64,000 bases of DNA from Escherichia coli (GCF_050920415.1 NZ_CP169309.1), one strand, 5' to 3'; counted from the first letter of the stretch, positions 35,501 to 60,539 are shown. Numbers and translations are program-made. Notes: generated by a model not told the origin, from the letters alone.

Positions 35501-37536
35501 CCGTCTATGGCATTGGTCAGGTTAGTGATATTGCTGGTGTTGGTGGCGATGTTGGTGGTGTTGGTAGCGATATTGGTGGTGTTTGCCGCCACATCGTCCT
35601 TGGTCGCTTTCAGCTGAGAACCGTTAACGGCGTCGGTGCTGGTGTCAGAGAGCTCGCCAGCGGTGACGTTAGTGATTCTGTTGGTGGCGTTAGTACCGTG
35701 TGCAGCGGTGAATGCGCCTGTGGCGTCGTCCCATTTCAGGGCGTCTTCACCGAGGTTAGTCACCGTATCAGTCAGGTTAGTGATACTGGTGGTGTTGCCA
35801 GCCACTTCGCTCGTCAGGTTAGTGATGTTGGTGGTGTTAGCCGCCACATCGTCCTTGGTCGCTTTCAGCTGAGAACCGTTGACGGCGTCGGTGCTGGTGT
35901 CAGAGAGTTCGCCAGCGGTGACATTGGTGATTTTGCTGGTGACGTCGGTGCCGTGAGCGGCGCTGAACGCGGTGCCATTCCACAGCAGGGCATCATCATT
36001 GAGACTATCTACGGCATCGGTCAGGTTAGTGATATTGGTGGTGTTGCCAGCCACTTCGCTCGTCAGGTTAGTGATGTTGGTGGTGTTAGCCGCCACATCG
36101 TCCTTGGTCGCTTTCAGCTGAGAACCGTTGACGGCGTCGGTGCTGGTGGCTGAAAGGTCGCCAGCGGTAACGTTAGTGATTTTGCTGGTGGCATCTGTAC
36201 CATGTGCCGCACTATATCCCCTTTTAAGGTTGTCCCATTGTATCGTATTCGTGTTTAGATCCGCTAAGGCGTCGCCAACATTGCCATAAATACCATTTTT
36301 CAGTCTGTAATTCGGGGAAGTCACCACGCCCTGCGAATTGACGGTCGCTCCTCCACCAAGATTATCCGCTACTGACTTACTAATAGCATAAAGCTGTGAT
36401 CCATTGATGGCATCAGTACTGTCAGTGTCGATATCACCTTTTGCCATATTGACAATTTTTCGCTGAGCTGTTGTGTTACCCACGGAGACAGTATCCGCTT
36501 CAGTCGCGACAGAATCAGCACCCAGAGCAATTGAATTTTTACCTTGAGCAGTGGCCTGAGCACCAATTGCAATGCCATTTTCTAAACCGGCATAACTGCC
36601 TTGTCCAAGAGCAATGGCATTTGCCCCACCGGTAATACTCCCATTTCCCAGTGCGATTGCATTTACGCCGTCAGCTTTATTCCCCTGACCGATGGCAATG
36701 GCACCCGCAGCGATTGCCTGGCTTTGATTACCCAGAGCAATCGTATTATCGGTATTTGCAATACTCCCGTAGCCCAACGCGATACTGTTAAGCCCATTTG
36801 CCTCAGCTTTAGTACCCACTGCCGTTGCATTTTCAGCGGCTTCGGTCTCAGCGCCAACCGCAACCGCGTTTGCGGCGCTGGCAATGGACAGTCTACCTAA
36901 TGCAAGGCTGTCTTCACCACTAGCAGCACTCTCTCTACCTGCGGCAATGGAATTAGTTCCTGACGCCTTTGCCAGTCTCCCGAATGCAAGAGCATCCATA
37001 GCACTTGCTACTGTATCCTTGCCCAACGCTATGGTGCCTTCAGCTGTAGCTTGTGCAGAATTCCCCAGTGCAAGGGTATAATCGCTGGTCGCTTTAGCCG
37101 CACTGCCGATGGCGATTGAACGGCTACCCGTGGAAACCGTTGATTGCCCTAAGGCGACCGATCTTTCTCCTGACGAATTACTTGAGAAGCCAATTGCGGT
37201 ACTTCCCACCCCGGCATTAGCTCTTGCACCGACAGCAACACTCCCGCTACCCGTTGTGCCTGTACCCATTGTATCTGATGAGGCGACGGCCTCTTTACCA
37301 ATAGCAATCCAGTTATCACTCAGTGGCGTTTCGCCTGCAATTTCTTCTGCGCTTTTACCACCGTCAAGTGAAACCGAAGCATAGGCTCCAACTGATGAGA
37401 GTAACCCACCCGCAACCAGGGCAGAAATTAACAGCTTACTGCGCCCGCTCTTTTTGCCACGGCTCTTCGCCGTTTCGCTGGCAACGCTATAGCTGCCCGT
37501 CGCCGGATTCCAGATAACTTTAAATATTTTGTTCAT
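32560..37536 (-). CDS. upaG: Trimeric autotransporter adhesin (YadA-like; UpaG/EhaG-type), 1658 aa
   Basis: N-terminal extended signal peptide [18 protein letters not shown]...; long Gly/Ala/Ser/Thr/Asn-rich passenger with YadA-like head and neck repeats; C-terminal membrane anchor ...[31 protein letters not shown]. Confidence 0.85.
35150..36230 (-). repeat. In-frame tandem repeats (about 250 bp / 83 aa, roughly 4 copies) inside the adhesin passenger domain
   Basis: Protein repeat unit ...[61 protein letters not shown]... recurs; identical antisense ORFs in the track (35165, 35387, 35636) reflect the nucleotide repeats. Confidence 0.8.
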
Positions 37537-44616: not shown

Positions 44617-45195
44617 ATGGATCTGTTGATTGTTTTAACTTACGTGGCGCTGGCATGGGCGGTCTTTAAAATCTTCCGTATTCCGGTGAATCAGTGGACG
44701 CTGGCGACGGCGGCGCTGGGAGGCGTTTTTCTGGTAAGCGGTTTGATTTTGTTGATGAACTACAACCACCCTTACACTTTTACCGCACAGAAAGCGGTGA
44801 TTGCTATTCCCATCACGCCACAGGTGACGGGGATCGTGACTGAAGTCACTGACAAGAATAATCAGCTTATTCAGAAGGGCGAGGTGCTTTTTAAGCTCGA
44901 CCCGGTACGTTATCAGGCGCGAGTCGACAGACTTCAGGCTGACCTGATGACGGCGACGCATAATATAAAGACGCTGCGCGCGCAGCTCACTGAAGCGCAA
45001 GCCAATACCACCCAGGTTTCAGCGGAGCGTGACCGCTTGTTTAAAAATTATCAACGTTACCTGAAAGGCAGCCAGGCGGCGGTAAATCCGTTCTCAGAAC
45101 GTGATATCGACGATGCGCGGCAGAATTTTCTCGCGCAGGATGCGCTGGTGAAAGGTTCGGTGGCGGAACAGGCGCAAATCCAGAGCCAGCTCGAC
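44617..45195 (+). pseudogene. yibH: yibH 5' fragment (HlyD-family membrane fusion protein), 193 codons, interrupted by IS insertion
   Basis: [23 protein letters not shown]... reading frame runs into IS left end at 45196; the rest of the gene resumes at 47324. Confidence 0.85.
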
Positions 45196-45296
45196 TGTCA
45201 GCGCCAATGATATAAGACAGTAATTCACCATTTGGATTGTCCGCTCCACCCAACATGTTGTTTCCTTAAGGTTCCTACACCACAAAGGGAACACTC

Positions 45297-46343
45297 ATGC
45301 TGAGCAGAGAGGACTTTTACATGATAAAGCAAATGCGCCAGCAAGGTGCGTATATTGTTGATATTGCCACTCAGGTTGGTTGCTCTGAGCGGACTGTCAG
45401 ACGGTACCTGAAATACCCGGAACCTCCGGCCAGAAAAACACGCCACAAAATGGCCAAACTCAAGCCGTTCATGGACTATATCGACATGCGTCTGGCTGAG
45501 AATGTCTGGAACGGCGAGGTCATCCTGGCGGAAATCAAAGCGATGGGTTATACCGGTGGCCGTTCCATGTTGCGTTACTACATCCAGCCCAAACGTAAGA
45601 TGCGGCCATCGAAGAAAACGGTTCGCTTCGAAACTCAGCCCGGTTACCAGCTACAGCATGACTGGGGAGAAGTTGAGGCTGAGGTTGCCGGGCAACGATG
45701 CAGGGTTAACTTCGCGGTTAATACGCTGGGGTTCTCACGTCGCTTCCATGTCTTCGCGGCACCAAAGCAGGATGCTGAACATACCTATGAGTCACTGGTC
45801 CGCGCCTTTCGCTACTTCGGCGGCAGCGTGAAAACCGTGCTGGTCGATAACCAGAAAGCCGCAGTGCTGAAAAATAACAACGGGAAGGTGGTGTTCAACT
45901 CCGGGTTCCTGCTGCTGGCCGATCACTATGGCTTCCTGCCACGGGCCTGCCGTCCACGAAGGGCCAGAACCAAAGGTAAGGTGGAACGGATGGTGAAATA
46001 CCTCAAGGAAAACTTCTTCGTCCGGTACCGCCGGTTCGACAGCTTCGCCCATGTTAATCAGCTACTGGAGCAGTGGATGGCTGACGTTGCCGACAGGCGG
46101 GAACTTCGCCAGTTCAGGCAGACACCGGAACAGCGCTTCACGCAGGAACAGGTGCATCTGCAGGCGCTGCCAGGTACGGACTTCGATACCAGCTACTTCG
46201 ATATCCGTCATGTCTCCTGGGATGGCTATATCGAGGTTGGCGGGAACCGTTACAGCGTGCCGGAAAGCCTGTGTGGCCAGCCGGTATCAATACGGATCTC
46301 GCTGGATGATGAACTGCGATTTACAGTAATGAGCAACAGGTAG
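45297..46343 (+). pseudogene. istA: IS21-family transposase IstA, frameshifted near 3' end (348 aa as read; about 390 aa if the -1 shift around 46313-46343 is repaired, then ending at 46468)
   Basis: HTH N-terminus and integrase-core-like body; alternative frame open from 46313 to TGA at 46466-46468, which overlaps the istB ATG. Confidence 0.8.
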
Positions 46344-46455
46344 CATCGCACCGTCTCTGTTCGGCTGTATACGGCTGGCAGACCGTGCCGGAGCATCACG
46401 CCCCACTCTGGCAGCAGGTCAGTCAGGTGGAACACAGGCCGTTGAGTGCCTATGA

Positions 46456-47262
<807 letters not shown>

Positions 47263-47323
47263 TGACCAATAGCGGACATTAAAAATGGCGAAAAACGGCC
47301 AATAATCTTGGCGTTGACACGAC

Positions 47324-47881
47324 AGTATGGTTAACGGTGAGCAGTCGCAGATTGTCAGCTTAAGGGCGCAGCTTACCGAAGCGAAATATAACCTTGAGCA
47401 GACCGTCATTCGCGCGCCGAGCAATGGCTACGTTACTCAGGTACTGATCCGCCCAGGTACATACGCAGCTGCCTTGCCGCTACGTCCGGTGATGGTTTTC
47501 ATCCCCGAGCAAAAACGGCAAATTGTCGCCCAATTTCGGCAGAACTCGCTGTTACGTCTGAAACCCGGCGATGATGCGGAAGTAGTGTTTAACGCGCTAC
47601 CTGGGCAGGTGTTCCACGGCAAACTGACTAGTATTTTACCTGTCGTGCCAGGTGGTTCGTATCAGGCGCAGGGGGTACTGCAATCATTAACCGTCGTACC
47701 CGGCACGGACGGTGTGCTGGGAACCATCGAACTGGACCCTAACGCTGATATCGATGCTTTACCCGACGGCATCTACGCCCAGGTGGCAGTTTACTCCGAC
47801 CATTTCAGCCATGTTTCGGTGATGCGGAAGGTGCTGCTAAGAATGACCAGTTGGATGCATTATCTTTATTTGGATCATTGA
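47324..47881 (+). pseudogene. yibH: yibH 3' fragment (185 codons); joins in-frame with 44617-45195 to give 378 aa once IS and TSD are removed
   Basis: ...[32 protein letters not shown]... typical HlyD/EmrA-like; frame arithmetic confirms. Confidence 0.85.
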
Positions 47882-48185
47882 GGGGGGCGGGGGAGATTAT
47901 GGAACTTTGCTCCTTGTAAGGACTAATTATTTTTGCATATTACTTCATTGGCTGCGATGATTTTTCTTTAATATTCATTAGGTTGAGAAGTTCTTGATGA
48001 GTGTGCTCTCATTGGATTTTTTATCCGTCTTGTTCTGCCGCAGGATCAGACTATACATCGTCGAGATCGCAATGATTATGAATTGTTCCTCTGCGACGAT
48101 GCTAATCAAAAAAGTGCTGGAGTGCTTTTCCATCTATTGCGATGATGGTTTTATTATCTGAAGAATGACAGTCACACATCCAGCT

Positions 48186-48457
48186 AATAAAGAACTCGTG
48201 AAATTTTCCAGGACTGATACAGGACACAACTCTGGTAATGATATCGTGAATAGGAATACCATATTAAAAATCACCATATTGCTTCAACAAATCGAGATGA
48301 GTCTCACCAGAATCCTCTATATCTTCCCATCCTTCAGCTCCGGAAATGATGGCGAAAATAATCAGCACTAGGATATCTGATAATTTATACTCTACTTTCC
48401 AGACTTGTCTGTAATCGGGACAGTAGAAATATGCTCCATTAATTTTTTAAGTTCCAT
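48186..48457 (-). pseudogene. H-repeat (ISAs1-family) transposase N-terminal fragment, degraded copy 1 (frameshift and in-frame stop)
   Basis: Begins ATG-GAA-CTT-AAA-AAA (MELKKLM...) like copy 2 at 50276-50572 but carries a 1-nt deletion and a stop. Confidence 0.7.
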
Positions 48458-48915
48458 TTTTTCTCCTTGTTTATGTAAGGAGTGTCTGAATATATATAAG
48501 CTATGAAAACACTTATTAAATAATAAGGGATATCTTGATTATTGGACATTTAGTGCTAATTGTTTAGTGCAAAAAATCGGCGTTATATGGTCTTTACCTT
48601 TATTACCCTTGCTGTTTTCCTCCAGCCTATGAAAAGCCAGCTTCAGTAAATCGTACCGCCCGAACATTGTAAGATACAATTTACTGACAACTTAGTACAT
48701 TATTAATATCACATTTAAGCTTTTTTTTCAGATTATAAAGCCTGTCCACTTTATAATCTTTGCAATTATAAACGTATTCTTTTTTTGTTTTCATATCAAT
48801 GACACTAACCCCTCGCATGTTACTACCGTTGTCGTAATTGCTAAACACGGAGTACTTATATCCACTTTGAATAAAACTAACGCTAAAGTAATCCGTTTGA
48901 AATCTGGAGTAATGA

Positions 48916-49128
48916 TTATAAAAAATCCTGAATACATTGGTCCATCTGAAATGAATTGAAATTTATCCCATGCTGACTATTCATTTCATAAATCAACGTT
49001 TCACCAAAACTTGTTAATGACAAAGTTCCTTTGGATGTATTACATAAAAAATAATTATTTCCTGCGTTTAGAGTCCAGGGAATTCCAGATAAAAAAATAA
49101 AAATTAATGCTCTATCTATATTGCTCAT
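48916..49128 (-). CDS. Small hypothetical protein (70 aa) with N-terminal hydrophobic segment; candidate immunity protein for the orphan muramidase-like toxin domain
   Basis: ORF start overlaps the stop of the orphan toxin ORF by 17 bp; MSNIDRALIFIFLSGIPWTLNAG... Confidence 0.35.
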   Translation of the reverse strand: MSNIDRALIFIFLSGIPWTLNAGNNYFLCNTSKGTLSLTSFGETLIYEMNSQHGINFNSFQMDQCIQDFL

Positions 49129-50276
49129 AATTAGCCCTTATTCTGTCATCATATCCTCGCTGACTTTGCCCATTATAACATAGAGCAAAGTTAAGCCAAT
49201 CTTTATCTCTAATAGCACGCAATAATACAGGATTAGATTTTATGAAGTTAATGAATGCCGCCAGATGGTTTTTCTCTGACTCTGAAATCGATATTATAAA
49301 CTCTTCGGGCGAAGAGTACCCGGCAGCTTGGTAATTTGAAGCCAATATCTGAAATTTACCCCACGATGCCGATTTAAGCGCAGCTTGCTTATCTAAAACA
49401 TATGCACGAAGTAATTTTTGATATTGCTCCGATCGTGTTCCATAACCGCCAGAACGGCTGTTGGAAATATCAGGTTGAGAATCATACACACCATTCGTAT
49501 ATCGATGGAAATGATGTCTTTCAAAAAGAATTGAGGGGACGTAATCATCTTCTTGTTCAAATTTAAAATAGCTACCGGAACTACCAGTTTCAGTTTTTGC
49601 AACAGCTTTAATTGCAGCCACTTCGCATTGTAGTGTCCTTGCAGCATTTTCATAGTCTGCATCATCAATGGTATCTCCGTTATAAAATCGTAAAAATTCC
49701 AATGGAATAAGTTCATTATTTACAGGAGTTTTTGGGTAATTGCTATTATTAATAGCATTCAAAAACACAACCGGATGAAAATGCCACACAGCATCATCAC
49801 TATTAAACGGAGACACCCCGCTCATCCACTCCAGATCCAGCTGCCACTTTTCACAGTATGCCACTTCCTCGGGTCCAGATCTTTATAAAACCCTTCCCAG
49901 CGTCCCGTCGAGCGACCGCCGTACCACTCGCTGTGGTGTCTGACTGTCAGACGATTCACCACATTTCTCACCAGTGGTTCACGCACGGTCAGCGCCTGTC
50001 TGATCTCTTCCTCCGTCACTTTTCCATCACCGTCCTGATCCATACCCGCCATCAGCTCACGATAAAAGGGCGGTACCTGCTCATACAGCCACTCATCTCC
50101 CTGTTCTGCGGCACGGCTTATTGAGTCAAACGCTTCCGGCACCCATCCTTCGTACGGGCTGTACGTCATGTCACCGCTGCTGTTCTCCTCCAGCGGCTGA
50201 AAACCCAGCTTCAGTAAATCATACTGTCCGGCCTCTTCAACATCCTTCTGTGGCAGCCAGCCGGTTCCGGTGATAT
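49112..50276 (-). pseudogene. Displaced (orphan) effector 3' module: shared pre-toxin region with EF-hand loop plus a distinct C-terminal N-acetylmuramidase-like domain; 5'-truncated and carrying a 1-nt frameshift near 49866
   Basis: 49764-50276 is near-identical to 52116-52630 of the full-length effector; downstream domain has ...FERHHFHRYT... and ...SWGKFQILASNY... motifs; no start codon; two overlapping ORFs (49822-50391, 49112-49864). Confidence 0.75.
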
Positions 50277-50572
50277 TAAGCCGCCTCTGGTTTCCTTTTA
50301 ATAAAGCACTCGTGAAATTTTGCAGGACTGATACAGGATACAACTCTGGCAATGGTATCGTGAACAGGAATACCATTATCAAAATCACCATATTGCTTCA
50401 AAAAATCGAGATGTGTTTCCCCAAAATCCTCTATATCTTCCCAGCCTTCTGCACCCGAAATAACGGCACAAATAGTCAACAGTAGAATATCCGATAATTT
50501 ATGTTGCACTTTCCAGGCTTGTCTGTAATCGGGGATAATAGAAATATGTCCCATCAATTTTTTAAGTTCCAT
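50276..50572 (-). pseudogene. H-repeat (ISAs1-family) transposase N-terminal fragment, copy 2 (about 92 codons then truncated)
   Basis: [64 protein letters not shown]... matches the start of E. coli H-rpt proteins, then loses homology. Confidence 0.8.
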
Positions 50573-50873
50573 TTTGTTCTCCTTAATTATGTAAGGAGTA
50601 TTTGATCATGTATAAGCAATAAAAAACAGCTTTAGGTAATGAGGAATATCTCAATTTTCAAACATAAAATGCGAATTGTCTAGTACAAAAAAGCAGCGTT
50701 ACGTGATCTTTCCCTGCCTGCCTGTACGATATCCCTCAAAAATAATTTTCCAGTCAGTTATTCATGTCTAACTTAAAATCATAAAACATTTAAATTAATA
50801 ATAAACAAATTCAACCTAGTCGCATTATTATTTTAATAACACAGCATCGATTTCATAAAAAACTGCACAATGG

Positions 50874-51284
50874 TCATCCAGTCCATTTGCAATCAGTACC
50901 ATCATCATTATATGCCTCAATATTTTCTTCAAACTCAGTTGTTTTCCCACTTATTGATTTATAATGAAACAAATTAAATCTTGCACCTTGTGTGGAAACA
51001 ACATACAACCCATTAATTTTTCCATTTACAACCTCGCTCCATGCATAAGAAAATTCAGAAGGCCTGTCATCGAAAGTCACTTCTAATTTATTTATAAACG
51101 CAAGAGGTATAAATTTTGAGGATTTCTCATAAATCACATAACCTAAAAAAATATCGCCAGACGATATTTCAACAAACTTTAAATTTGTTTTCCCAGCGCT
51201 AAAACAGCCTACCGTTGTTTGTTGTTTAGCCAATAAACAACAAGGCACCAAACAAAACAGTAAAACCAATAAGTTAACTTTCAT
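50874..51284 (-). CDS. Candidate immunity protein (136 aa, cleavable signal peptide) for the upstream GH19-like effector
   Basis: MKVNLLVLLFCLVPCCLLA...; 5 bp downstream of effector stop; small secreted protein. Confidence 0.55.
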   Translation of the reverse strand: MKVNLLVLLFCLVPCCLLAKQQTTVGCFSAGKTNLKFVEISSGDIFLGYVIYEKSSKFIPLAFINKLEVTFDDRPSEFSYAWSEVVNGKINGLYVVSTQGARFNLFHYKSISGKTTEFEENIEAYNDDGTDCKWTG

Positions 51285-51289
51285 ATCAA

Positions 51290-53779
51290 TTACTCCAGTT
51301 CAGTTATTCGTCTCTCTACAAATGTGGATATATTCCTTTTTTCTATTCCATATACTTTTCTATCACCCTCACGCCCTTCCTGAGGAAACGGATGCAGGTC
51401 AATTAATTCTTTCGCCCTTCTATAACCTTTTAATGCTTCTTCGTTACTCTTGATCGTCCCTCTTCGGGAGCTATCAGGATCATGCCATATCCCCCATCCC
51501 AAAGCATATACTTTATTATCATATACGTCACTATCATCAAACAAGAAATCGTCGTTCATTGCTTTCTGATTTAAATGCTCGGCAGCAAGTGAGGTAACCA
51601 ATTTATTAAATATCGACAACCGTTCATCATAATGATTATACCCTCCATTAATCACTGCTGTAATTTTATTAAAATCATCATTTTTAGCATCTTCATTTAT
51701 TCTTTTGAATATATTGAAATACCAAAACGCAGATAATACGCAATGTGGGGAGGATATAAGTTTATCTCTTGCGGAATCTGAAGATGTTACGTCCTCATTG
51801 ATATATTCCCCATAGGCGGTGTAATTACTTTCCCCTGTAACTTGTATTAAGCCTCGGCCATACCACGGACTATATGAAGCTGATTCACCATTAATTTCTT
51901 TGGTATATCTAAAATAACCGCTCTCGTGAATAATTTGAGCAAGAAAATGGGCTTTTTCTCTACAAGTGGTCATACCAAACCGAATAAACCCTGCATTTAT
52001 ATCGTAGAGGTACCTTTTGAGAAGACCTTCACTTACTGCAGGAGCAACTTTTTTTAATTCATCTAATGTTATATCTCTGTTGCAAGCACACACAGATTTG
52101 GAATTAATAGCGTCCAAAAACACAACCGGATGAAAATGCCACACAGCATCATCACTATTAAACGGAGATACCCCGCTCATCCACTCCAGATCCAGCTGCC
52201 ACTTCTCACAGTATGCCACTTCCTCTGTGTCCAGATCTTTATAAAATCCTTCCCACCGCCCTGTCGAGCGCCCTCCGTACCATTCGCTGTGGTGTTTAAC
52301 TATCAGATGATTCACCACATTTCTCACCAGTGGTTCACGCACGGTCAGCGCCTGTCTGATCTCTTCCTCCGTCACTTTTCCATCACCGTCCTGATCCATA
52401 CCCGCCATCAGCTCACGATAAAAGGGCGGTACCTGCTCATACAGCCACTCATCTCCCTGTTCTGCGGCACGGCTTATTGAGTCAAACGCTTCCGGCACCC
52501 ATCCTTCGTACGGGCTGTACGTCATGTCACCGCTGCTGTTCTCCTCCAGCGGTTGAAAACCCAGCTTCAGTAAATCATACTGTCCGGCCTCTTCAACATC
52601 CTTTTGTGGCAGCCAGCCGGTTCCGGTGATATTAAACCACCACTGCTGCGATTCATCCGTGATCGGTGTCGTGGCTTCCCGCGGAAGAACGCGCTGAGCA
52701 CCCAGTGTGGCTGCGGTTGCGGTAAATACCTCCTGTCCCGGAACGGCCTGCCGGGTGTATAAAATTATCCCTTTTGGTGCCAGAACAGTCCGTTTTTCTC
52801 CCTTAACGCCTGCCGGGTTGGATAAGAACTTTGGCATATTCGGGTCTGTACTCAGAACCTCCAGATGGACGAACCACTCGCGCTCAATCTCACCGCTTCC
52901 CTCGCCAGGATAATCCTCGCATCCCATAAATCCGACCGGTGTTCCGGCACTGACTTTCCACTCTTCCGTTTCGTCGACCGTCTGTACCGAGTCAAAAATG
53001 CCTTTTGCCTTCGCCTTCTGCATCCACTCAGGCATCAGCATCTGTATTTCGCCATCTGACTCCATCAGATCCGGATCCAGGGTCACCCAGTACTGCTCAT
53101 TCCCCGGTTTATTGCCTTCCAGCAGGCGAACCAGTCCGAATGTCGTCAGGACCGGCTGGCCGTTATTGGTCACGTAAAAACGTCCGGTCCGGGATGACAC
53201 AAACCGATCTCCCGCATTAAGTGTCCTGTTTCCGCTGATTTTCGGGGGTATCCAGTACGTGGCATGATCTCCGCTTTCCTGCCCCTCGGGAAGGCCGTTC
53301 TTTCCCGGGATGTATCGGTGCAGCAATATGCCACCATGCCCGGTTTTAACTTTATAGCAGGGGGAGCCGGGATAATCGTTCACCGGGGCCAGATGCATAT
53401 AGAGACAGTAAAATTCCAGCCAGCTTTCTTTTTTTTGCGGGTCTGGCTGGCACTGCGATTTCACCAGAACAAATGTGCTGCTGTAACGGAGTTGCTGCCC
53501 TTTGTAGGTGCCTTTCAGGTAATCATTATTTATCCGGTACGCCGCAATGGTGCCATCGGCCATAAACTGAAGAGGAACCGGTTCTCCGGTAGCGGCGGTA
53601 TCCGGTTTCAGGGCTGATAACGGATTAGACACGTCACTGATATGTATCCCGCCGTGCCACAGCCCGTTTCCACCCAGCAGCCAGGTTCCGTGCGCTTCTT
53701 TGTCAATAAGCCGCATTATCTCATCCAGCGAGCGAAACTCTTTGCCTTCTTTATCCCTGATGGGATGGCTGATTTTCAT
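51290..53779 (-). CDS. VgrG-linked candidate T6SS effector, 829 aa: N-terminal domain of unknown function, central EF-hand-like Ca-binding loop, C-terminal GH19/lysozyme-like peptidoglycan hydrolase domain
   Basis: 9 bp downstream of vgrG stop; DQDGDGKVTEEE loop; C-terminal ...AHFLAQIIHESGYFRYTKE...YGRGLIQVTGESNYTAYG...LSAFWYFN... resembling the GH19 / COG3179 signature. Confidence 0.7.
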   Translation of the reverse strand: MKISHPIRDKEGKEFRSLDEIMRLIDKEAHGTWLLGGNGLWHGGIHISDVSNPLSALKPDTAATGEPVPLQFMADGTIAAYRINNDYLKGTYKGQQLRYSSTFVLVKSQCQPDPQKKESWLEFYCLYMHLAPVNDYPGSPCYKVKTGHGGILLHRYIPGKNGLPEGQESGDHATYWIPPKISGNRTLNAGDRFVSSRTGRFYVTNNGQPVLTTFGLVRLLEGNKPGNEQYWVTLDPDLMESDGEIQMLMPEWMQKAKAKGIFDSVQTVDETEEWKVSAGTPVGFMGCEDYPGEGSGEIEREWFVHLEVLSTDPNMPKFLSNPAGVKGEKRTVLAPKGIILYTRQAVPGQEVFTATAATLGAQRVLPREATTPITDESQQWWFNITGTGWLPQKDVEEAGQYDLLKLGFQPLEENSSGDMTYSPYEGWVPEAFDSISRAAEQGDEWLYEQVPPFYRELMAGMDQDGDGKVTEEEIRQALTVREPLVRNVVNHLIVKHHSEWYGGRSTGRWEGFYKDLDTEEVAYCEKWQLDLEWMSGVSPFNSDDAVWHFHPVVFLDAINSKSVCACNRDITLDELKKVAPAVSEGLLKRYLYDINAGFIRFGMTTCREKAHFLAQIIHESGYFRYTKEINGESASYSPWYGRGLIQVTGESNYTAYGEYINEDVTSSDSARDKLISSPHCVLSAFWYFNIFKRINEDAKNDDFNKITAVINGGYNHYDERLSIFNKLVTSLAAEHLNQKAMNDDFLFDDSDVYDNKVYALGWGIWHDPDSSRRGTIKSNEEALKGYRRAKELIDLHPFPQEGREGDRKVYGIEKRNISTFVERRITELE

Positions 53780-53788
53780 GTTCAGTCC

Positions 53789-55990
53789 TTATCGTGAGAA
53801 TCTTCCCGGCCGTTGTGGCGGTACCTTATCCTGCTGGGGAGGATCAAAGGCTTCCTGTACATTTTTCCGTGGTGGCTCCGCCCCTTCAGTTCCAGGTCCG
53901 CCATTGTCATAATCTGCCAGCGCTTTCAAAACCGCCGGTCGTAGTGTCGGCACCGGCGTTCCCGGACTACCGCCGCTATTGAGATTGATTTTCGGCCCGA
54001 CGATGTCCACGCCCCCTGAATGGATGACCACAAACGAACCACCCACCTTCAGGGTGATTTTACCGCCACTCTCCAGTACGATTTCATCCCGGACCTTCAT
54101 TCCCAGCGCACCGGTAATCTTCCTCGCCAGGTCGCCCTTCACCTCCAGACTGTGCGTTCCCTCCACCAGACTGATATGGTTCCCCGTCGTCTTATGCTCC
54201 TGCTTCCCTTCCACCGTCACTTTACGGTCGTTTCTGACATACAGGCCGTCATCGTGACTCACGCTCACCGTCCGGTCATTCGTCACCTTCAGCGTCTGGT
54301 CATTACGTACCGTTATGCGCCGGTCGTTCGCCACCGTGATACTCTGGTCGTGGCCCCCTTCTTTTCTGGTGCCGACCTCAACCGTCTGCCCCTTCACCAC
54401 CCTTATCTTCTGGTCGTTACCGATGGTCTCCGTATGGTCATGCTTCACGTCCGTCGTCCGGTCGTTAAGCACCTCCGTGTCCATGTTCTTCTGCGCGTGG
54501 ATATACACCTGCTCACTGTCCGTCGCATCCTCGAAACGCAGTTCATTAAAGCCGCTTCCTTTATAGGTCTTCGAGCGGATGGTCATCTGCGTCCGCGTGC
54601 CCGGTAAATCCCCCGGTGAACGGTTATCTTCATGGTAGGTCCGCCCCGTCACAATGGGCTGGTCCGGGTCGCCGTTCAGAAAGTCCACTATCACTTCCTG
54701 ACCCACACGCGGTATCGCCAGATTGCCGAACCCCGGTCCCGCCCATGCCTGCGACACCCGTATCCAGCATGAACTCTCCTCCGTCATCCCGTGATAACGG
54801 TCCCAGTGAAACTTCACCCGTACCCGGCCATGCTCGTCGCAGAATATCTCCTCGCCCTTCGGCCCGGTCACGATGGCACTCTGCGGGCCGTCCACCTTCG
54901 GCTTCGGCAGGGGCTGTGAGCGCCAGGTCCGGTCTGCCGGGATGACCGTGATATGGTTACTCAGTGTCGTTCCCCTCCCCTGGCTCCCGTGCAGCGCCTG
55001 CGGCTGGCTCCCCGTCAGCGTGCTGCTCACCACCTGCCACTCACGGTTCGGGTTCGCTCCCTGTACCGGATGCCCCGTCAGGGTGAACCGCCGTCCCGGC
55101 CACAGCGCCGGGGAGTTACTGATACCTGTGGCGGTTTCAGCACTGTTACGCAGCCCTTCCAGCCGGTAGCGGGTAAAGTCCTGACCATGCTGCTCGTCCT
55201 TGTAGCGCCCCGGCCAGTCCAGGATTTTGTACTGCTTCAGTTGCTCGTTGAGGTTTTCAGCATCCTCAATGTAAATACCCGGCCAGTCCGGCACCTTAAA
55301 CGTGTGGTCTTTTGAACGCACCTGCGAGGGCCGCACCTGCGCCTGGTAGCGGAACAGGCTGATGCACGCCGTCGTCACCTCACGGGTGTTCGGGTTAAAC
55401 GGTATCTCCCCGTACACCGGCAGGCCCGCCACATCATCGCACAGCGTGAGCGTCTGCTCCGGGCTGTCGTCAGCGTATCTGTCATAAAAGAAGATGCCTT
55501 CCTCCGCCCACAGCCGGGTCAGAAACGCCAGGTCGCTTTCACCGTACTGGACGCAGAACTCCCGTGCCGGGTGGCTCTCATAAAAGCGCGGCGTCCACTG
55601 CGTCACTCCGTCCTCGTTTAACAGCGTGGCGGAGATGGCCTGAATGTCCTGCTGCTGGAAGATTCGGTAGTTCTGCCGCAGCCCGCTGCGCCACAGGGGC
55701 GGGCGTATCTGAAGGTGGTACTGCATCTGCCAGCCGTTGTGCTCCTTCATGCCTAACCCCGACACCACACCGCTCACATAACGCAGCGCCGTGCCACCCT
55801 GCCAGATGGTCAGCACGGCCCCCTTCTCCAGCAGCTTCTCCGCCGTCTGGCGGAACGAGTCGCTGGCAACGTCCACATCCAGGACGAACGGCGATGAGTA
55901 TGCCTGCGTGAGGCGGAAATCCACCACCGCGAACGTCTCCGGCACCAGTCCGTCCACCGTCAGCGTAAAACGCAGCCCTTTTAATGACAT
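53789..55990 (-). CDS. vgrG: T6SS spike protein VgrG (copy B), 733 aa
   Basis: MSLKGLRFTLTVDGL...; gp27/gp5-like regions (...GQEVIVDFLNGDPDQPIVTGRTYH...) and C-terminal beta-helix repeats (VKHDHTETIG...ITVANDRRITVRNDQTLKVTNDRTVSV...). Confidence 0.9.
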   Translation of the reverse strand: MSLKGLRFTLTVDGLVPETFAVVDFRLTQAYSSPFVLDVDVASDSFRQTAEKLLEKGAVLTIWQGGTALRYVSGVVSGLGMKEHNGWQMQYHLQIRPPLWRSGLRQNYRIFQQQDIQAISATLLNEDGVTQWTPRFYESHPAREFCVQYGESDLAFLTRLWAEEGIFFYDRYADDSPEQTLTLCDDVAGLPVYGEIPFNPNTREVTTACISLFRYQAQVRPSQVRSKDHTFKVPDWPGIYIEDAENLNEQLKQYKILDWPGRYKDEQHGQDFTRYRLEGLRNSAETATGISNSPALWPGRRFTLTGHPVQGANPNREWQVVSSTLTGSQPQALHGSQGRGTTLSNHITVIPADRTWRSQPLPKPKVDGPQSAIVTGPKGEEIFCDEHGRVRVKFHWDRYHGMTEESSCWIRVSQAWAGPGFGNLAIPRVGQEVIVDFLNGDPDQPIVTGRTYHEDNRSPGDLPGTRTQMTIRSKTYKGSGFNELRFEDATDSEQVYIHAQKNMDTEVLNDRTTDVKHDHTETIGNDQKIRVVKGQTVEVGTRKEGGHDQSITVANDRRITVRNDQTLKVTNDRTVSVSHDDGLYVRNDRKVTVEGKQEHKTTGNHISLVEGTHSLEVKGDLARKITGALGMKVRDEIVLESGGKITLKVGGSFVVIHSGGVDIVGPKINLNSGGSPGTPVPTLRPAVLKALADYDNGGPGTEGAEPPRKNVQEAFDPPQQDKVPPQRPGRFSR
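54085..54930. repeat. About 0.85-kb block near-identical to 58422-59267 (internal vgrG segment shared by both paralogs, offset 4337 bp)
   Basis: Antisense ORFs 54020-54607 and 54616-54945 are letter-identical to parts of 58204-58944 and 58953-59534; VgrG proteins identical over about 270 residues. Confidence 0.85.
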
Positions 55991-56145
55991 GATGACCTCC
56001 CTGGTATTGCTACAGGAAAAAGTAATTAACCGATATTGACCGTACCTTCTGATATTCTCTCACTGATTCATTATCTGTATTTCCCATGAACATTCTCATT
56101 TCAACAGGAAAACCAACGAATTGTAGCCATGACAATAAGTTAACA

Positions 56146-57075
56146 TTAATAATTCCTCAACGAATAAGGAGGAGATGCCCTGTCCCCATCAATAGTAACC
56201 ACGACCTGATTTGATCTTATTTTGAATATATTATCATTACCGCCATGATAGCCAAATCGTGCTAAAAAATCCTGAAATAGACCAGGTCCTCTATAAGGTC
56301 CACAGATTCTCCAAACCCGCCACTCCTCTATGCCATACGTTATTTTATCTATAGGATTAGTACACTCTCTTTCTGCCCGCCAGTTCATAATAGAAAGAAA
56401 ATACTCATATATATATTGTTCTGCAAACCACTCTTGATTAACTATTGTAAATTCTACCGTCCCTATATTATAACGATGAATGCCCGGTAAAAAGGCATAA
56501 TAATCGTTCAATGTGACATCAAAGGATAGCTCTTTCCCTGGTAATATCTCGCGCCAAACAGATTTACTTTTCCATTCACCAAAGCTACATTTTGTTTTTT
56601 TTAAAAAATCCAACTGAATGTTATCCATTATCGGTATAAACACACCACTACACAAGGAAGAGTAAGGCCCGCCGTTAACGTCAAGAGGAAGAGTTAGTCG
56701 ATGAACAAAATAAGATCCCTGGCTTTTATTCGATAAAACCACTGCAGCTGCTACAATATTTTCTTTCTGATGCACGGAAAGATGAAGATATATTTTATTT
56801 TTATCCTGATTATACTGACTCTCATTTTTACTGATAGTATAATATTGAAAAACAGCATAGGCTGAAAGATCATCATAATAATCATAATAATTAAGCCTTG
56901 TCGGTTCTACACGAGGATAGACACCAAGTTTTTCCATTACTCCATTCCAATGTAACTTCCCATATCTGTAATGAACCGCATAATCGCCAGAGATATCATA
57001 AGCAAATATTGGATGCACCCAAGAAAAAAAAGCAATAAAAACAATCCATCTAGCAAGCATATACTCCCCCGTCAA
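56146..57075 (-). CDS. Candidate immunity protein (309 aa, N-terminal signal peptide) for the upstream HExxH effector
   Basis: MLARWIVFIAFFSWVHPIFAYD... signal peptide; 9 bp downstream of the metallopeptidase-like gene; Trp/Tyr-rich. Confidence 0.5.
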   Translation of the reverse strand: MTGEYMLARWIVFIAFFSWVHPIFAYDISGDYAVHYRYGKLHWNGVMEKLGVYPRVEPTRLNYYDYYDDLSAYAVFQYYTISKNESQYNQDKNKIYLHLSVHQKENIVAAAVVLSNKSQGSYFVHRLTLPLDVNGGPYSSLCSGVFIPIMDNIQLDFLKKTKCSFGEWKSKSVWREILPGKELSFDVTLNDYYAFLPGIHRYNIGTVEFTIVNQEWFAEQYIYEYFLSIMNWRAERECTNPIDKITYGIEEWRVWRICGPYRGPGLFQDFLARFGYHGGNDNIFKIRSNQVVVTIDGDRASPPYSLRNY

Positions 57076-57084
57076 ATAAAAGCA

Positions 57085-57930
57085 TCAATATGGTACAGGA
57101 ATCTCGAAATAACGTTCGATATTATATGCATTCTGAAACAGTTCTGATTTTTTATCATTTTTTAATTTAGTGGCATGAGCAATATATTCGTCACCTGTAC
57201 TATACTCTATATCTACCGGCATATCTTCCGTCCACATGCCTCCAAACTTAAGTGAATCCCCGTACCTTATAAAGTGAGATAGTTCATGGCAGAGTGTCGA
57301 TGCCTTAGAGTTTTCCCCAGTGAATGGCCTATCTATAAATCTTTGTCCTATAGTTATACTTACCAAACTTTTAAAGCTTCCAGATTTTACACCCAAAATC
57401 TGATCGTAAGTTACATTGGCAGCATAAGCGTCATTATCTGTACAATTCACAAAGTTACCAATTTTGGGCCTGATTACGTCTTTGTCAACATATTCATTAC
57501 CCCCTTTGTCATTAAGAACAAGATTACAATTGGCATCACGTTTGAGGAAATGGTCATGAACGGTAACGTCTACACAATCACCTTCCACAGATAATTCCCC
57601 ACATATCTCATACAGGCGAGTAACGCCATTTCTCATATAATCCCTTGCCTTTATATTCTCTGTAAACAGAGTATTACGCCCCCCGAAAGGGAACTTTAAT
57701 TTAATATAAGTATTTCCATCAATGCCAAATATATTTATAAATTCCTGATTTTGTTCCGCCCCCCATTTATCACCAAGATCTTCTACTCTTTTTTTCAATA
57801 CAGCCATCTGCGCCTTCAGAGCCTCTCTCATCATTATTTTAAAATCATTAGTAATTTTCCCCTCCTTTAAAACTACACACTGTTCACCACTCTGGCTTTT
57901 TCCGCTCGTACTACCCTTTTCATCTCCCAT
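57085..57930 (-). CDS. VgrG-linked candidate effector, 281 aa, with HExxH zinc-metallopeptidase motif (TLCHELSHF)
   Basis: Follows vgrG copy A by 81 bp; HELSH motif in C-terminal third; no signal peptide. Confidence 0.6.
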   Translation of the reverse strand: MGDEKGSTSGKSQSGEQCVVLKEGKITNDFKIMMREALKAQMAVLKKRVEDLGDKWGAEQNQEFINIFGIDGNTYIKLKFPFGGRNTLFTENIKARDYMRNGVTRLYEICGELSVEGDCVDVTVHDHFLKRDANCNLVLNDKGGNEYVDKDVIRPKIGNFVNCTDNDAYAANVTYDQILGVKSGSFKSLVSITIGQRFIDRPFTGENSKASTLCHELSHFIRYGDSLKFGGMWTEDMPVDIEYSTGDEYIAHATKLKNDKKSELFQNAYNIERYFEIPVPY

Positions 57931-58011
57931 ATAAATCCTCCTTGGTATATATTTTCACTACAAACCCTGTTCCATTTATGCAAAAACACGCCAATTACAG
58001 GCGGTCACTCT

Positions 58012-60324
58012 CTATTCATTAATCCCTCCCCATATCATATCGATATTCAAATGCAACAATCTGACGTCTATTGTCTGCTCGCTGTCAGTGGTGAATATTT
58101 CCGTATACCCATCCTTATCCGTTTCTCCGCGGGTCTGCGTGCCGTCCTCAAAGAAGGCAATGTAGCGTGTCTCTGAATACGGTATCCCGTCATCGTCTGT
58201 AAAATGGAACTGGAGAGTATATTTTTCAGGGTTCTCATCATCATTCTCATCCTCCAGCGCCTCCAGTACAACCGGTTGCAGCGTCGATACTGGCGTCCCC
58301 GGACCTCCCCCACCATTCAGGTTTATCTTCGGCCCCACTATATCCACGCCGCCAGAGTGTATCACCACGAACGAACCGCCCGCTTTCAGGCTTATCTGGC
58401 TGCTGCTCTCCAGCACGATATCCCCGTCCACCTTTATCCCCAGCGCGCCACTCACCTTCTCCGCCAGGTCACCCTTCACCTCCAGGCTGTGTTTCCCCTC
58501 CACCAGGCTGATATGGTTTCCCGTCGTCTTATGCTCCTGCTTCCCTTCCACCGTCACTTTACGGTCGTTTCTGACATACAGGCCGTCATCGTGACTCACG
58601 CTCACCGTCCGGTCATTCGTCACCTTCAGCGTCTGGTCATTACGTACCGTTATGCGCCGGTCGTTCGCCACCGTGATACTCTGGTCGTGACCCCCTTCTT
58701 TTCTGGTGCCGACCTCAACCGTCTGCCCCTTCACCACCCTTATCTTCTGGTCGTTACCGATGGTCTCCGTATGGTCATGCTTCACGTCCGTCGTCCGGTC
58801 GTTAAGCACCTCCGTGTCCATGTTCTTCTGCGCGTGGATATACACCTGCTCACTGTCCGTCGCATCCTCGAAACGCAGTTCATTAAAGCCGCTTCCTTTA
58901 TAGGTCTTCGAGCGGATGGTCATCTGCGTCCGCGTGCCCGGTAAATCCCCCGGTGAACGGTTATCTTCATGGTAGGTCCGCCCCGTCACAATGGGCTGGT
59001 CCGGGTCGCCGTTCAGAAAGTCCACTATCACTTCCTGACCCACACGCGGTATCGCCAGATTGCCGAACCCCGGTCCCGCCCATGCCTGCGACACCCGTAT
59101 CCAGCATGAACTCTCCTCCGTCATCCCGTGATAACGGTCCCAGTGAAACTTCACCCGTACCCGGCCATGCTCGTCGCAGAATATCTCCTCACCCTTCGGC
59201 CCGGTCACGATGGCACTCTGCGGGCCGTCCACCTTCGGCTTCGGCAGCGGCGCGTGACGCCACGTCCTGTCTGCCGGTATCACCTCAAACTGATTGCTCA
59301 GTGTCGTCCCTTCACCGTGACTCCCGTGCAGCGCCTGCGGCTGTTCTCCCCGCAGTGTGCTTCCCACAACCTGCCATTCCCGGTTCAGCGTCGCTGACGG
59401 ATGGCCCGTCAGCCGGAACCGCGTTCCCGGCCACAGCCGCGCCGTGTTACACACCCCGCTCGCCGTCTCCGCCCCGTTCCGCCACCCTTCCGTCTGGTAA
59501 CGCGCAAAATCCTGGCCATGCTGCTCATCCTTGAAACGCCCCGGATAATCAAATATCTCGTACTGCGTTCCCTGTCCGTTCAGGCTCTCCCCGTCATGGC
59601 TGTAGTACCCCGGCCACCCCGGCGTTTTGAACGTATAATCCTGCGTCTCCACCGACGCCACGCTTATCTGCGCACGGTAACGGAAGTCGCGGATGTACTC
59701 TGTCGTGCCTCCGGTCGTGGTATTCGGGTTAAACGCCAGCGCCCCCATTCCCGTCAGCCCCGCCACGTCATCACACACCGCCAGCTTCTGTTCCGGCCCG
59801 TCCTGACTGCAGCGTTCATAAAAGAAGATACCTTCCTCCGCCCACAGCCGGGTCAGGAATGTCAGGTCGCTCTCCCCGTACTGCACGCAGAACTCCCGCG
59901 CCGGGTGCGCCTCATAGAACAGCGGCATCCACGCCGTCACCCCGTTCTCTTCAAGAAGCTGCGCTGATATCGTCTGAATGTCCTGCTGCTGGAAGATACG
60001 GAAGTTCTGCCGTAACCCTGCCCGCCACAGCGGCGGGCTGATGCTCAGGGAATAACGCATCTGCCAGTCGTTGTTCTCACCGAGCTGCACCTCTGTCACG
60101 ATACCGCTGACGTAACGCTGTGCAGTGTCGCCCTGCCAGACCGTCAGCACCGCGCTTTTCTCCAGAAAATCTTCTGCCGTCAGGTCAGACAGTCCGCTGG
60201 CGATATCCACATCCAGGATGAACGGTGTGCAGTGGTGCTGGTACAGACGGAAGCTCACCACCGCCGTCGCCATCTCCACAATACCGTCCACCGACAGCGT
60301 GAAACGTAATCCTTCTGCTGCCAT
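58012..60324 (-). CDS. vgrG: T6SS spike protein VgrG (copy A) with about 100-aa C-terminal extension, 770 aa from MAAEGLRFTL (the ORF in the track starts 11 codons upstream)
   Basis: Same domain order as copy B; extra C-terminal tail ...EKYTLQFHFTDDDGIPYSETRYIAFFEDGTQTRGETDKDGYTEIFTTDSEQTIDVRLL... Confidence 0.9.
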   Translation of the reverse strand: MAAEGLRFTLSVDGIVEMATAVVSFRLYQHHCTPFILDVDIASGLSDLTAEDFLEKSAVLTVWQGDTAQRYVSGIVTEVQLGENNDWQMRYSLSISPPLWRAGLRQNFRIFQQQDIQTISAQLLEENGVTAWMPLFYEAHPAREFCVQYGESDLTFLTRLWAEEGIFFYERCSQDGPEQKLAVCDDVAGLTGMGALAFNPNTTTGGTTEYIRDFRYRAQISVASVETQDYTFKTPGWPGYYSHDGESLNGQGTQYEIFDYPGRFKDEQHGQDFARYQTEGWRNGAETASGVCNTARLWPGTRFRLTGHPSATLNREWQVVGSTLRGEQPQALHGSHGEGTTLSNQFEVIPADRTWRHAPLPKPKVDGPQSAIVTGPKGEEIFCDEHGRVRVKFHWDRYHGMTEESSCWIRVSQAWAGPGFGNLAIPRVGQEVIVDFLNGDPDQPIVTGRTYHEDNRSPGDLPGTRTQMTIRSKTYKGSGFNELRFEDATDSEQVYIHAQKNMDTEVLNDRTTDVKHDHTETIGNDQKIRVVKGQTVEVGTRKEGGHDQSITVANDRRITVRNDQTLKVTNDRTVSVSHDDGLYVRNDRKVTVEGKQEHKTTGNHISLVEGKHSLEVKGDLAEKVSGALGIKVDGDIVLESSSQISLKAGGSFVVIHSGGVDIVGPKINLNGGGGPGTPVSTLQPVVLEALEDENDDENPEKYTLQFHFTDDDGIPYSETRYIAFFEDGTQTRGETDKDGYTEIFTTDSEQTIDVRLLHLNIDMIWGGINE

Positions 60325-60539
60325 ATAAACCCCATAGCTACCGCACTCATAGTGCAAACCATACGGGCTTATAAGAAAGGCTTAAGTGAGATATCTGCCA
60401 GATAGCAACTATTAGGAAAATATTTATATCACCATGATAAATATGTGATTTATTGGGAGATAACAAACCATCAACATTTTCTGCCCTTTTTCCCATCACC
60501 AGGCCATACTGATATTTTTCCTCGCACAAAGGACTCGGC

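Follow-up and report, generated by a model that had tools for sequence, protein, structure and literature searches.

A probable auxiliary type VI secretion vgrG island with a displaced muramidase cassette at the rhsA site of Escherichia coli

We analysed a 64,000-nucleotide stretch of an Escherichia coli genome (GCF_050920415.1, NZ_CP169309.1), referred to here as the window, and found that the 12.8-kb interval between the genes yibF and yibH contains an island of minus-strand, vgrG-linked genes. This is very probably an auxiliary vgrG island of a type VI secretion system (T6SS) at the RhsA site, consisting of two tandem modules of spike, cargo effector and immunity gene (vgrG-A, E1 and I1, followed by vgrG-B, E2 and I2) which would be fired by a core T6SS. 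As an independent reading of the genes we used the annotation given by the Prokaryotic Genome Annotation Pipeline (PGAP) for strain MFDS1022581 (NZ_CP169399.1), which differs from the whole 64 kb by 7 single-nucleotide polymorphisms and two 1-bp indels (99.99% identity). This annotation and our map of open reading frames (ORFs) agreed gene for gene, and both reproduced the layout and spacings proposed in a sequence-only reading of the window. The gap between vgrG and effector is 81 nt for vgrG-A/E1 and 9 nt for vgrG-B/E2, and that between effector and next gene is 9–24 nt for E1/I1 and 5 nt for E2/I2. Each vgrG is followed by a toxin gene and then by a signal-peptide gene, which is the grammar of cargo effector/immunity pairs that the sequence-only reading had recognised. 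Within the window PGAP annotates no Rhs/YD, hcp, tss, PAAR, DUF4123 or DUF2169 gene, in agreement with that reading.

Both large ORFs which had been called VgrG homologues proved to be T6SS spike proteins of the TssI/VgrG family. VgrG-A and VgrG-B scored 591 and 589 bits against TIGR03361, about three times the cut-off of 186, and 431 and 413 bits against TIGR01646 (cut-off 122). They also matched the Pfam families Phage_GPD, Phage_base_V and Gp5_trimer_C, and the structure of Pseudomonas aeruginosa VgrG1 (4MTK) was matched at E = 8.6e−92. VgrG-A is 96% identical over its full length, C-terminal extension included, to the first VgrG (770 aa) of the main T6SS cluster of MFDS1022581; the N-terminal third of VgrG-B resembles the second VgrG of that cluster, and its short proline-rich tail is its own. 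At the protein level the two spikes are 100% identical at residues ~350–600 (window ~54190–54940 and ~58500–59270) and 50–80% identical in their N-terminal thirds, a pattern which indicates a probable recent gene conversion between tandem vgrG copies. In 3/3 loci examined, a VgrG with a C-terminus of the VgrG-A type has an M35-like effector/immunity pair downstream of it.

The main cluster of MFDS1022581 lies at yafV, ~4 Mb from the island, and comprises hcp, tssB, tssC, tssE, tssF, tssG, tagH, tssJ, tssK, tssL (icmH/DotU), tssH, vasI, tssA, tssM and the VasL gene, none of which is flagged as a pseudogene. It also holds three vgrG modules (M35-like, Tae4, and M23 with PAAR) and an IS21-disrupted vgrG with DUF4123, DUF3304 and Tle1 genes. 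The core set being complete there and no tss or hcp gene being present in the window, the island is therefore auxiliary, one of the two possibilities (auxiliary or orphan, dependent on a T6SS elsewhere, if on any) that the sequence-only reading had raised, and the strain has at least five VgrG-linked effector sets. The same region of MFDS1022581 (NZ_CP169399.1 4,105,000–4,150,000) carries a group II intron (ltrA) by Tle1 and a copy of IS2, and ISAs1 fragments lie at the end facing yafV.

The cargo of the second module, E2, is listed as WP_000703217.1 in the WHIX dataset of PMC12135965 (supplementary FASTA and tree). It has a WHxxxH motif at residues 41–46, an EF-hand at ~455–479 (a Pfam match) and a GH19-type lysozyme domain at ~575–740; apart from the EF-hand and a marginal GH19 match, Pfam and NCBIfam returned nothing for I2 or for the N-terminal region of E2. 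The motif, W41-H42-G-G-I-H46, is invariant in 47 E2 homologues, and H42, H46, H129, H305 and E307 are all invariant. The C-terminal domain matches the GH19 endolysin 9ms7 (E = 1.7e−13) and the C-domain of the effector TseP (8XCL, 8xcl_A; E = 5.8e−8). E619 (in HESG) and E628 lie 9 residues apart, as do E654 and E663 of TseP, and both align with the PWe2 endolysin; the domain is a lysozyme of the TseP-C type with two catalytic glutamates. The Zn-dependent amidase residues of the TseP N-domain are H19, H23, H109, H339, H359 and E539 (PMC11893102), and, by residue position, the spacing of H42/H46/H129 in E2 parallels that of H19/H23/H109. GC content falls from 0.53 in the WHIX part of E2 to 0.37 in its C-terminus, a drop like that reported for TseP, and across the island it is 0.53–0.60 in the vgrG and WHIX parts versus 0.33–0.37 in the toxin and immunity genes.

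With the first 572 aa of E2 as query we obtained 276 proteins; the 120 of them that were listed belong to Salmonella, Citrobacter, Enterobacter, Klebsiella, Cronobacter, Leclercia, Pantoea and other genera. Among the Enterobacteriaceae homologues listed the N-terminal region is 50–80% conserved and the C-terminus is swapped between at least six types of peptidoglycan hydrolase: GH19, N-acetylmuramidase (PF11860), GH108, M23 with GH24, CHAP and pesticin-like muramidase. The gene after E2, I2, encodes a protein whose N-terminus is a signal-like segment, MKVNLLVLLFCLVPCCLLA (by inspection), and it co-occurs with E2 in MFDS1022581, N96, RMDEC465 and contig L012. E2 is thus accompanied in the manner of WHIX effectors, with a toxic domain of GH19 type and an adjoining immunity gene which, by inspection, has a signal peptide. 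The claim that two of the three toxin domains of the island resemble peptidoglycan hydrolases held up, these being the GH19-like domain of E2 (9ms7, 8XCL) and the Muramidase domain (PF11860) of the orphan module described below, both peptidoglycan glycosidases.

To compare the loading of E2 we fetched five further WHIX loci. In four of the fetched loci, and also in a partial E. coli contig, the distance from the end of vgrG to the start codon of the WHIX gene is exactly 9 nt, and the TAA stop of vgrG is embedded in the TAAGGAG ribosome-binding site of the WHIX gene (window 53780–53800; L012, L014, L016 and L017). This overlap is conserved across genera and suggests that spike and cargo may be translationally coupled. 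All five VgrGs lying directly upstream of WHIX homologues (5/5; E. coli, Klebsiella, Cronobacter and a metagenome contig) share the 9-nt junction and end in a ...PxQRxGR(F/I)SR tail, the individual C-termini being VPPQRPGRFSR (window), VPPQRLGRFSR, VPPQRRGRISR, VQPSRRNRFSR and VPAARKGLISR. The tail is absent from VgrG-A, from the second main-cluster VgrG and from a second Klebsiella VgrG which precedes a non-WHIX gene. The experimentally mapped tail of A. jandaei VgrG4 ends in ...KVSFSGR. The conserved tail and the 9-nt junction therefore support VgrG-B as the probable dedicated carrier of E2, and they would explain the absence of adaptor genes, which is expected for the two loading modes of the island and is not anomalous. 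In an Enterobacter hormaechei contig (L015 3926–4000) a premature stop interrupts the vgrG that precedes a WHIX-M23-GH24 effector, and the tail IPAQRRGRFSR is encoded out of frame just after it; this vgrG could be a pseudogenised carrier, or the stop could be a sequencing or annotation error.

In the first module, the residues H215, E216, H219 and D236 of E1 are invariant among 14 family members and correspond to the HExxH motif and the third zinc ligand of M35 peptidases, an Asp within a GTxDxxYG-like segment. D236 lies in GGMWTED in E1 and in GG(M/V)GTDD in its relatives, and all 14 share the C-terminal motif F-x-N-A-Y-N-x-E-x-Y-F. A profile of the E1 family matched the M35 peptidyl-Lys endopeptidase 1G12 by sequence (E = 9e−5), and E1 has an aspzincin fold for which the nearest solved structures are secreted M35 proteases including AsaP1. 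E1 is 32% identical (E~1e−33) to a 307-aa protein which follows the main-cluster VgrG1, and also 32% identical to a 267-aa ‘peptidase M35’ found after a VgrG with a like C-terminal extension in strain ECNB21-M121; I1 is 30–33% identical to the downstream genes of these two paralogous M35-like effectors. I1 has no Pfam match; it carries an N-terminal hydrophobic signal-like segment, MLARWIVFIAFFSWVHPIFA (by inspection), and the hydrophobic signal-like N-termini of I1, I2 and the orphan immunity protein fit with periplasmic targets. Cargo effectors of this kind have precedents: the M35 cargo effector of E. coli PAR is lethal to E. coli, and the gene downstream of it neutralises this effect (PMC10673891); Wood et al. 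described metallopeptidases of the VgrG2b type which are encoded by Enterobacteriaceae as separate cargo effectors (PMC6899460).

It should be noted that in N96 the stop codon of E1 has changed from TGA to TTA (window 57086; L002 15997), fusing E1 and I1 into a 594-aa ORF (WP_000502244.1) which PGAP names ‘M35 family metalloendopeptidase’. Records of E1-I1 fusions exist for Escherichia sp. TW15838 and for one further genome as well; the split form is far commoner, with 67 contigs against 3 and 2 for the two fused sequences.

Downstream of I2 the sequence-only reading had listed a truncated orphan toxin with a small ORF. Both are present, with the correction that the toxin is frameshifted and the small ORF is part of a likewise frameshifted immunity gene. 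The orphan opens with a handle which by DNA alignment (repeats D1/D4) is ~96% identical to E2 at 52103–52645 (codons ~383–563); it corresponds to the second half of WHIX including the EF-hand, and its 5' two thirds are nearly identical to E2. After the handle the sequence diverges into an N-acetylmuramidase domain (Pfam Muramidase PF11860, 6.5e−46), and a separate immunity gene follows. The 5' end of the orphan abuts a truncated ISAs1 left end, annotated ‘incomplete’ by PGAP, which encodes residues 1–64 only of the NF033564 transposase and has a repeat copy at 48185–48599. This left-end region recurs past the orphan immunity gene, where it is preceded by a 58-nt remnant of the handle with 83% identity to 50173–50230 and 52529–52586. 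The 1-bp deletion in the orphan toxin is found in the window and in N96 and is absent from RMDEC465, L011 and L012. In the orphan immunity gene, which is intact (149 aa) in N96 and RMDEC465, the window lacks 1 bp at each of two positions when compared with N96 (48920 and 48966). We rejected a sequencing error as the origin of this frameshift, as the same 70-aa product occurs on 23 contigs. The orphan of N96 carries an IS66 element.

A full-length form of the muramidase gene was found in the Logan assembly L011. Its 749-aa WHIX-muramidase (P0002) shows 98% identity, with E2 over the WHIX part and with the orphan over the rest; next come its immunity gene and, immediately after that, the ISAs1 fragment and yibH. 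The orphan of the window therefore has the features of an orphan toxin/immunity cassette, namely a handle, a different toxin domain, its own immunity gene and a full-length form elsewhere. The orphan and the full-length form together indicate that the locus has swapped warheads through recombination within WHIX. In RMDEC465 (L003 2426–5128) and in the E. coli draft contig L012 (4888–7591) one more cassette, situated between ISAs1 copies, separates E2/I2 from the orphan muramidase; it is made up of a complete ISAs1, part of a vgrG, a gene for an S-type pyocin/colicin DNase, and an immunity gene of colicin type. Orphan cassettes on a WHIX handle, and recombination there, are not described in the WHIX paper (PMC12135965). 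We suggest tentatively, at somewhat less than even chances, that WHIX effectors diversify by Rhs-like orphan cassettes, with the latter half of WHIX (~540 bp, the EF-hand region) as handle for homologous recombination and the left ends of ISAs1/H-rpt elements as cassette boundaries. If this is true, a crossover downstream of the frameshift could re-arm the orphan of the window, and the L011 strain would represent either such a recombinant or the ancestral state.

MFDS1022581 carries the 12.8-kb interval with 100% identity, N96 with 99.9%, and RMDEC465 with 97.8% over 80% of the query; the remainder of the 5,426 complete E. coli genomes are without it. Searched separately at megablast sensitivity, E1/I1, E2/I2 and the orphan were each found in 3/5,426. 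Exact copies of the island proteins occur on 64–107 contigs of a wider collection, including contigs from Escherichia sp. 10290, TW15838, HH091_1A and E4385, E. ruysiae and E. whittamii. Close to yibF, the DNA shows ~95–96% identity to that of most E. coli. This distribution suggests divergent or cryptic Escherichia lineages as the home of the island, and the source strain may itself belong to such a lineage.

From these observations we infer how the island proteins would be secreted and loaded, and which enzymatic targets and immunity functions they would have. VgrG-A, a near copy of a main-cluster VgrG, would carry E1, which is predicted to act in the periplasm of the prey, and exported I1 would neutralise E1 in the producer. 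The N-terminal WHIX domain of E2 would cap the VgrG-B tail (...PPQRPGRFSR) with no need of an adaptor or chaperone; the GH19-type lysozyme would then degrade prey peptidoglycan, periplasmic I2 would protect the producer, and the WHIX/TseP-N domain may add an amidase activity. Firing would depend on the complete T6SS core at yafV. Further downstream an older warhead (second half of WHIX, N-acetylmuramidase and immunity gene), both genes of which are frameshifted, appears to have been cut off by an ISAs1/H-rpt fragment, and it would record the replacement of a toxin domain via the WHIX handle, comparable to the orphan C-terminal tips at Rhs loci.

A number of points weigh against this interpretation. 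The yafV core was examined in the near-identical genome MFDS1022581. E1 has no Pfam or NCBIfam match, Aspzincin_M35 (PF14521) being absent even at E ≤ 10, and weak Aspzincin_M35 matches were obtained in only 4/14 of its relatives (best 2.2e−3). Because E1 lacks the PF14521 match but its family profile matches 1G12, it is a divergent M35-like relative and not a canonical M35 member. A relationship of E1 to the C-terminal metallopeptidase of VgrG2b was rejected, as no similarity to the solved domain was detected in sequence or in fold. The label ‘TTR-like’ for the C-terminal extension of VgrG-A was reduced to an analogy, the match to VgrG1 of enteroaggregative E. coli (6SJL) stopping short of the C-terminus. 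For I1, I2 and the orphan immunity protein, the call of a signal peptide was made by eye. An AlphaFold2 model of an E2-(GGS)12-VgrG-B-tail chimera (47-row alignment) was unusable, with a mean predicted local distance difference test score of 55.7 and ~26 in the tail. Finally, a promoter and terminator scan of the island gave counts close to the shuffled expectation and no clear operon boundaries.

The alternative which survives best, and which we nevertheless consider improbable, is that the island is a non-functional relic of a vgrG/rhs locus, kept by drift or for its immunity genes. Decay is visible in places: both orphan genes are frameshifted, the ISAs1 fragments and an IS21 insertion in yibH mark the surroundings, and N96 has lost the E1 stop and acquired the IS66 element in its orphan. 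E. coli T6SSs are, moreover, often repressed in vitro. However, the six genes of both main modules are intact in three complete genomes whose DNA differs by up to ~2%, and a relic is also difficult to reconcile with exact proteins on so many contigs, a complete core T6SS in a near-identical genome, and a VgrG-B tail and vgrG-WHIX junction which are conserved across genera.

It is still less probable that E1 is mainly an anti-eukaryotic or extracellular protease toxin like Aeromonas AsaP1, in which case the 304-aa protein would not be an immunity protein. Across three paralogous modules the downstream gene with an export signal is retained and varies together with the effector, and the M35 effector of E. 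coli PAR, neutralised by its downstream gene, kills E. coli (PMC10673891); these points outweigh the closeness of the fold to secreted M35 proteases, including the fish-toxic AsaP1, and the proposal that P. aeruginosa VgrG2b acts across kingdoms (PMC6899460). A prophage or tailocin remnant, with the VgrG-like genes as baseplate hubs and the GH19 and muramidase proteins as endolysins, is highly improbable: despite the VgrG matches to Phage_GPD, Phage_base_V and Gp5 Pfam families and the phage endolysins that are the best Protein Data Bank matches of the E2 C-domain, the T6SS-specific TssI models score at ~3x cut-off, the interval is without other phage genes, E2 belongs to the T6SS-specific WHIX family (>98% of genomes with the family have a T6SS), the toxin genes are followed by signal-peptide genes and not by holins or spanins, and paralogous modules lie inside the main T6SS cluster.

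That the auxiliary island stands in the position of rhsA, as had been claimed, is borne out by synteny with K-12, 23CRST026 and FDAARGOS_1282. At yibF-yibH K-12 has rhsA-yibA and orphan fragments, with a RhsA of 1,377 aa; strain 23CRST026 has an rhs core, orphans and ISAs1; and FDAARGOS_1282 has an empty site. The interval in the window contains no gene annotated as RHS and no ORF of more than 829 aa, and it is not an Rhs element. Among 40 evenly spaced genomes sampled, roughly two thirds had an rhs-type junction and about a quarter an empty-site junction. Homology to rhs-type genomes runs from yibF to window 60356, where 32 nt remain to the ATG of vgrG-A; it was therefore the rhs cargo that the island replaced, while the upstream region was retained and presumably acts as its promoter region (Table 1).

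Outside the island the window consists of core genome (waa cluster to mtlA, then yibF-selAB). The sequence-only reading was right to place yibH on this side of the island, at 44617–47881, but the gene there (HlyD-family) is split by the IS21-like element ISEc62 (istA 45297–46469, istB 46469–47262). Compared with MFDS1022581, istA of the window lacks 1 bp (46318) and 1 bp is inserted at 46552, close to the istB 5' end, and therefore a different IS gene is frameshifted in each. An unrelated accessory locus between lldP and yibL encodes a YadA-like trimeric autotransporter adhesin of 1,658 aa (32560–37536), with an adjoining DUF3251 gene.

Table 1 Features of the yibF-yibH interval, with positions counted from the first nucleotide of the window.
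Feature	Position	Strand	Description
vgrG-A	58012..60324	-	770 aa; T6SS spike protein with ~70-aa C-terminal extension; ORF open up to TTG at 60357
E1	57085..57930	-	281 aa; M35/aspzincin-like zinc metallopeptidase, HELSH at residue 215; predicted periplasm-acting cargo effector of VgrG-A
I1	56146..57060 (alternative start 57075)	-	304 aa; predicted periplasmic immunity protein for E1
vgrG-B	53789..55990	-	733 aa; T6SS spike protein with WHIX-type tail ...VPPQRPGRFSR
E2	51290..53779	-	829 aa; WHIX-domain effector of the TseP family; WP_000703217.1
I2	50874..51284	-	136 aa; predicted periplasmic immunity protein for E2
ISAs1 (H-rpt) left-end fragment	50299..50715	-	Closes the E2/I2 cassette; NF033564, PGAP; 50300-50572 in the ORF layout
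Orphan EF-hand and N-acetylmuramidase ORFs, overlapping	49112-50391	-	ORF map/PGAP
Orphan WHIX C-terminal module	49112..50289	-	543-bp handle 49747-50289, then N-acetylmuramidase domain; 5'-truncated, 1-bp frameshift
Orphan immunity gene	48681..49130	-	149 aa if intact; frameshifted here to a 70-aa product; small ORF 48916-49128 is part of it
Third WHIX-handle remnant	48605..48662	-	58 nt; repeat family D5
Second ISAs1 (H-rpt) left-end fragment	47961..48599	-	yibH-side island boundary; PGAP ISAs1 pseudogene; 47961-48457 in the ORF layout; repeats D2, D3, D6
yibF/vgrG-A intergenic region	60325..60539	.	Common to rhsA-bearing strains; presumed island promoter region

The novelty implied by the sequence-only reading is overstated, as the toxin families are already catalogued, and every element of the island is of a kind described before (VT-type vgrG islands, WHIX/TseP, M35-type cargo, and the orphan toxin/immunity cassettes of polymorphic toxin loci). 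Like E2, the WHIX effectors of subclass I (Fridman et al., PLoS Biol 2025, PMC12135965) combine an N-terminal WHxxxH domain with a C-terminal peptidoglycan-targeting domain, chitinase/GH19-like being the commonest C-terminal class, and as at the E2 locus they have a downstream signal-peptide gene; their loading site is the C-terminal tail of an upstream VgrG, as the VgrG-B tail would be for E2. New in the window compared with the loci described there are the displaced muramidase cassette and the further 58-nt remnant, which ISAs1/H-rpt ends delimit at the rhsA site. TseP, an amidase-lysozyme of Aeromonas dhakensis (eLife 2025, PMC11893102; 8XCL), shares with E2 a length of ~830–850 aa, an EF-hand and a C-terminal lysozyme; in both the GC content falls in the C-domain and one immunity gene follows downstream, and the upstream VgrG is the carrier of TseP and the probable carrier of E2. 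H42/H46 of E2 would correspond to H19/H23 of TseP as conserved histidines of the N-domain. One difference from TseP lies in the C-domain swapping seen in Enterobacteriaceae.

For the first module the closest described system is M35PAR of E. coli PAR (PMC10673891), in which a separate DUF2345 gene bridges VgrG and effector, whereas VgrG-A in the window is a single gene. Identity between E1 and those E. coli paralogues examined that are annotated as M35 is only ~32%; the M35 reference structures are GfMEP (1G12), AsaP1 (2X3A) and deuterolysin (1EB6). The vgrG islands of E. coli that carry VT effector modules (Ma et al. 2018, as reported in PMC6730261) have, in that account, vgrG genes outside or inside the main cluster together with non-Rhs effector/immunity pairs, as here; the VT lysozyme-like toxins mentioned there have a GLxQ motif, and E2 has G-L-I-Q at 643–646 within G641-R-G-L-I-Q646. 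With the RhsA locus of K-12 (Poole et al. 2011, PMC3150448) the island shares the yibF-yibH site and the upstream intergenic region. Rhs loci and the island also have in common orphan toxin/immunity cassettes which retain a stretch of the carrier gene, and an association with ISAs1/H-rpt; in contrast to Rhs, the island is without a YD-repeat core, its carrier domain is WHIX, and delivery would be as VgrG cargo and not in an Rhs cage. A literature search for yibF with vgrG returned no papers, and neither this occupancy of the rhsA site nor an orphan cassette with a WHIX handle was found in the searchable literature.

The island does not change the understanding of the T6SS, and the gain is mainly one of annotation, as four proteins which PGAP calls ‘hypothetical’ can now be named. 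It offers a natural example of toxin-domain replacement in the WHIX/TseP family, with an ancestral or recombinant full-length form for comparison, and, in the near-identical VgrG-A and main-cluster VgrG1 with M35-like effectors that are 32% identical, a system for studying the evolution of spike-cargo and immunity specificity. If the tentative cassette model is true, the architecture of the rhsA hot spot would be a property of a T6SS cargo locus together with H-rpt elements and not of Rhs proteins. The rhsA site can be taken over wholly by non-Rhs T6SS cargo modules, and the architecture of Rhs elements (a fixed site, H-rpt/ISAs1 repeats and orphan tips) is thereby linked to T6SS auxiliary islands generally.

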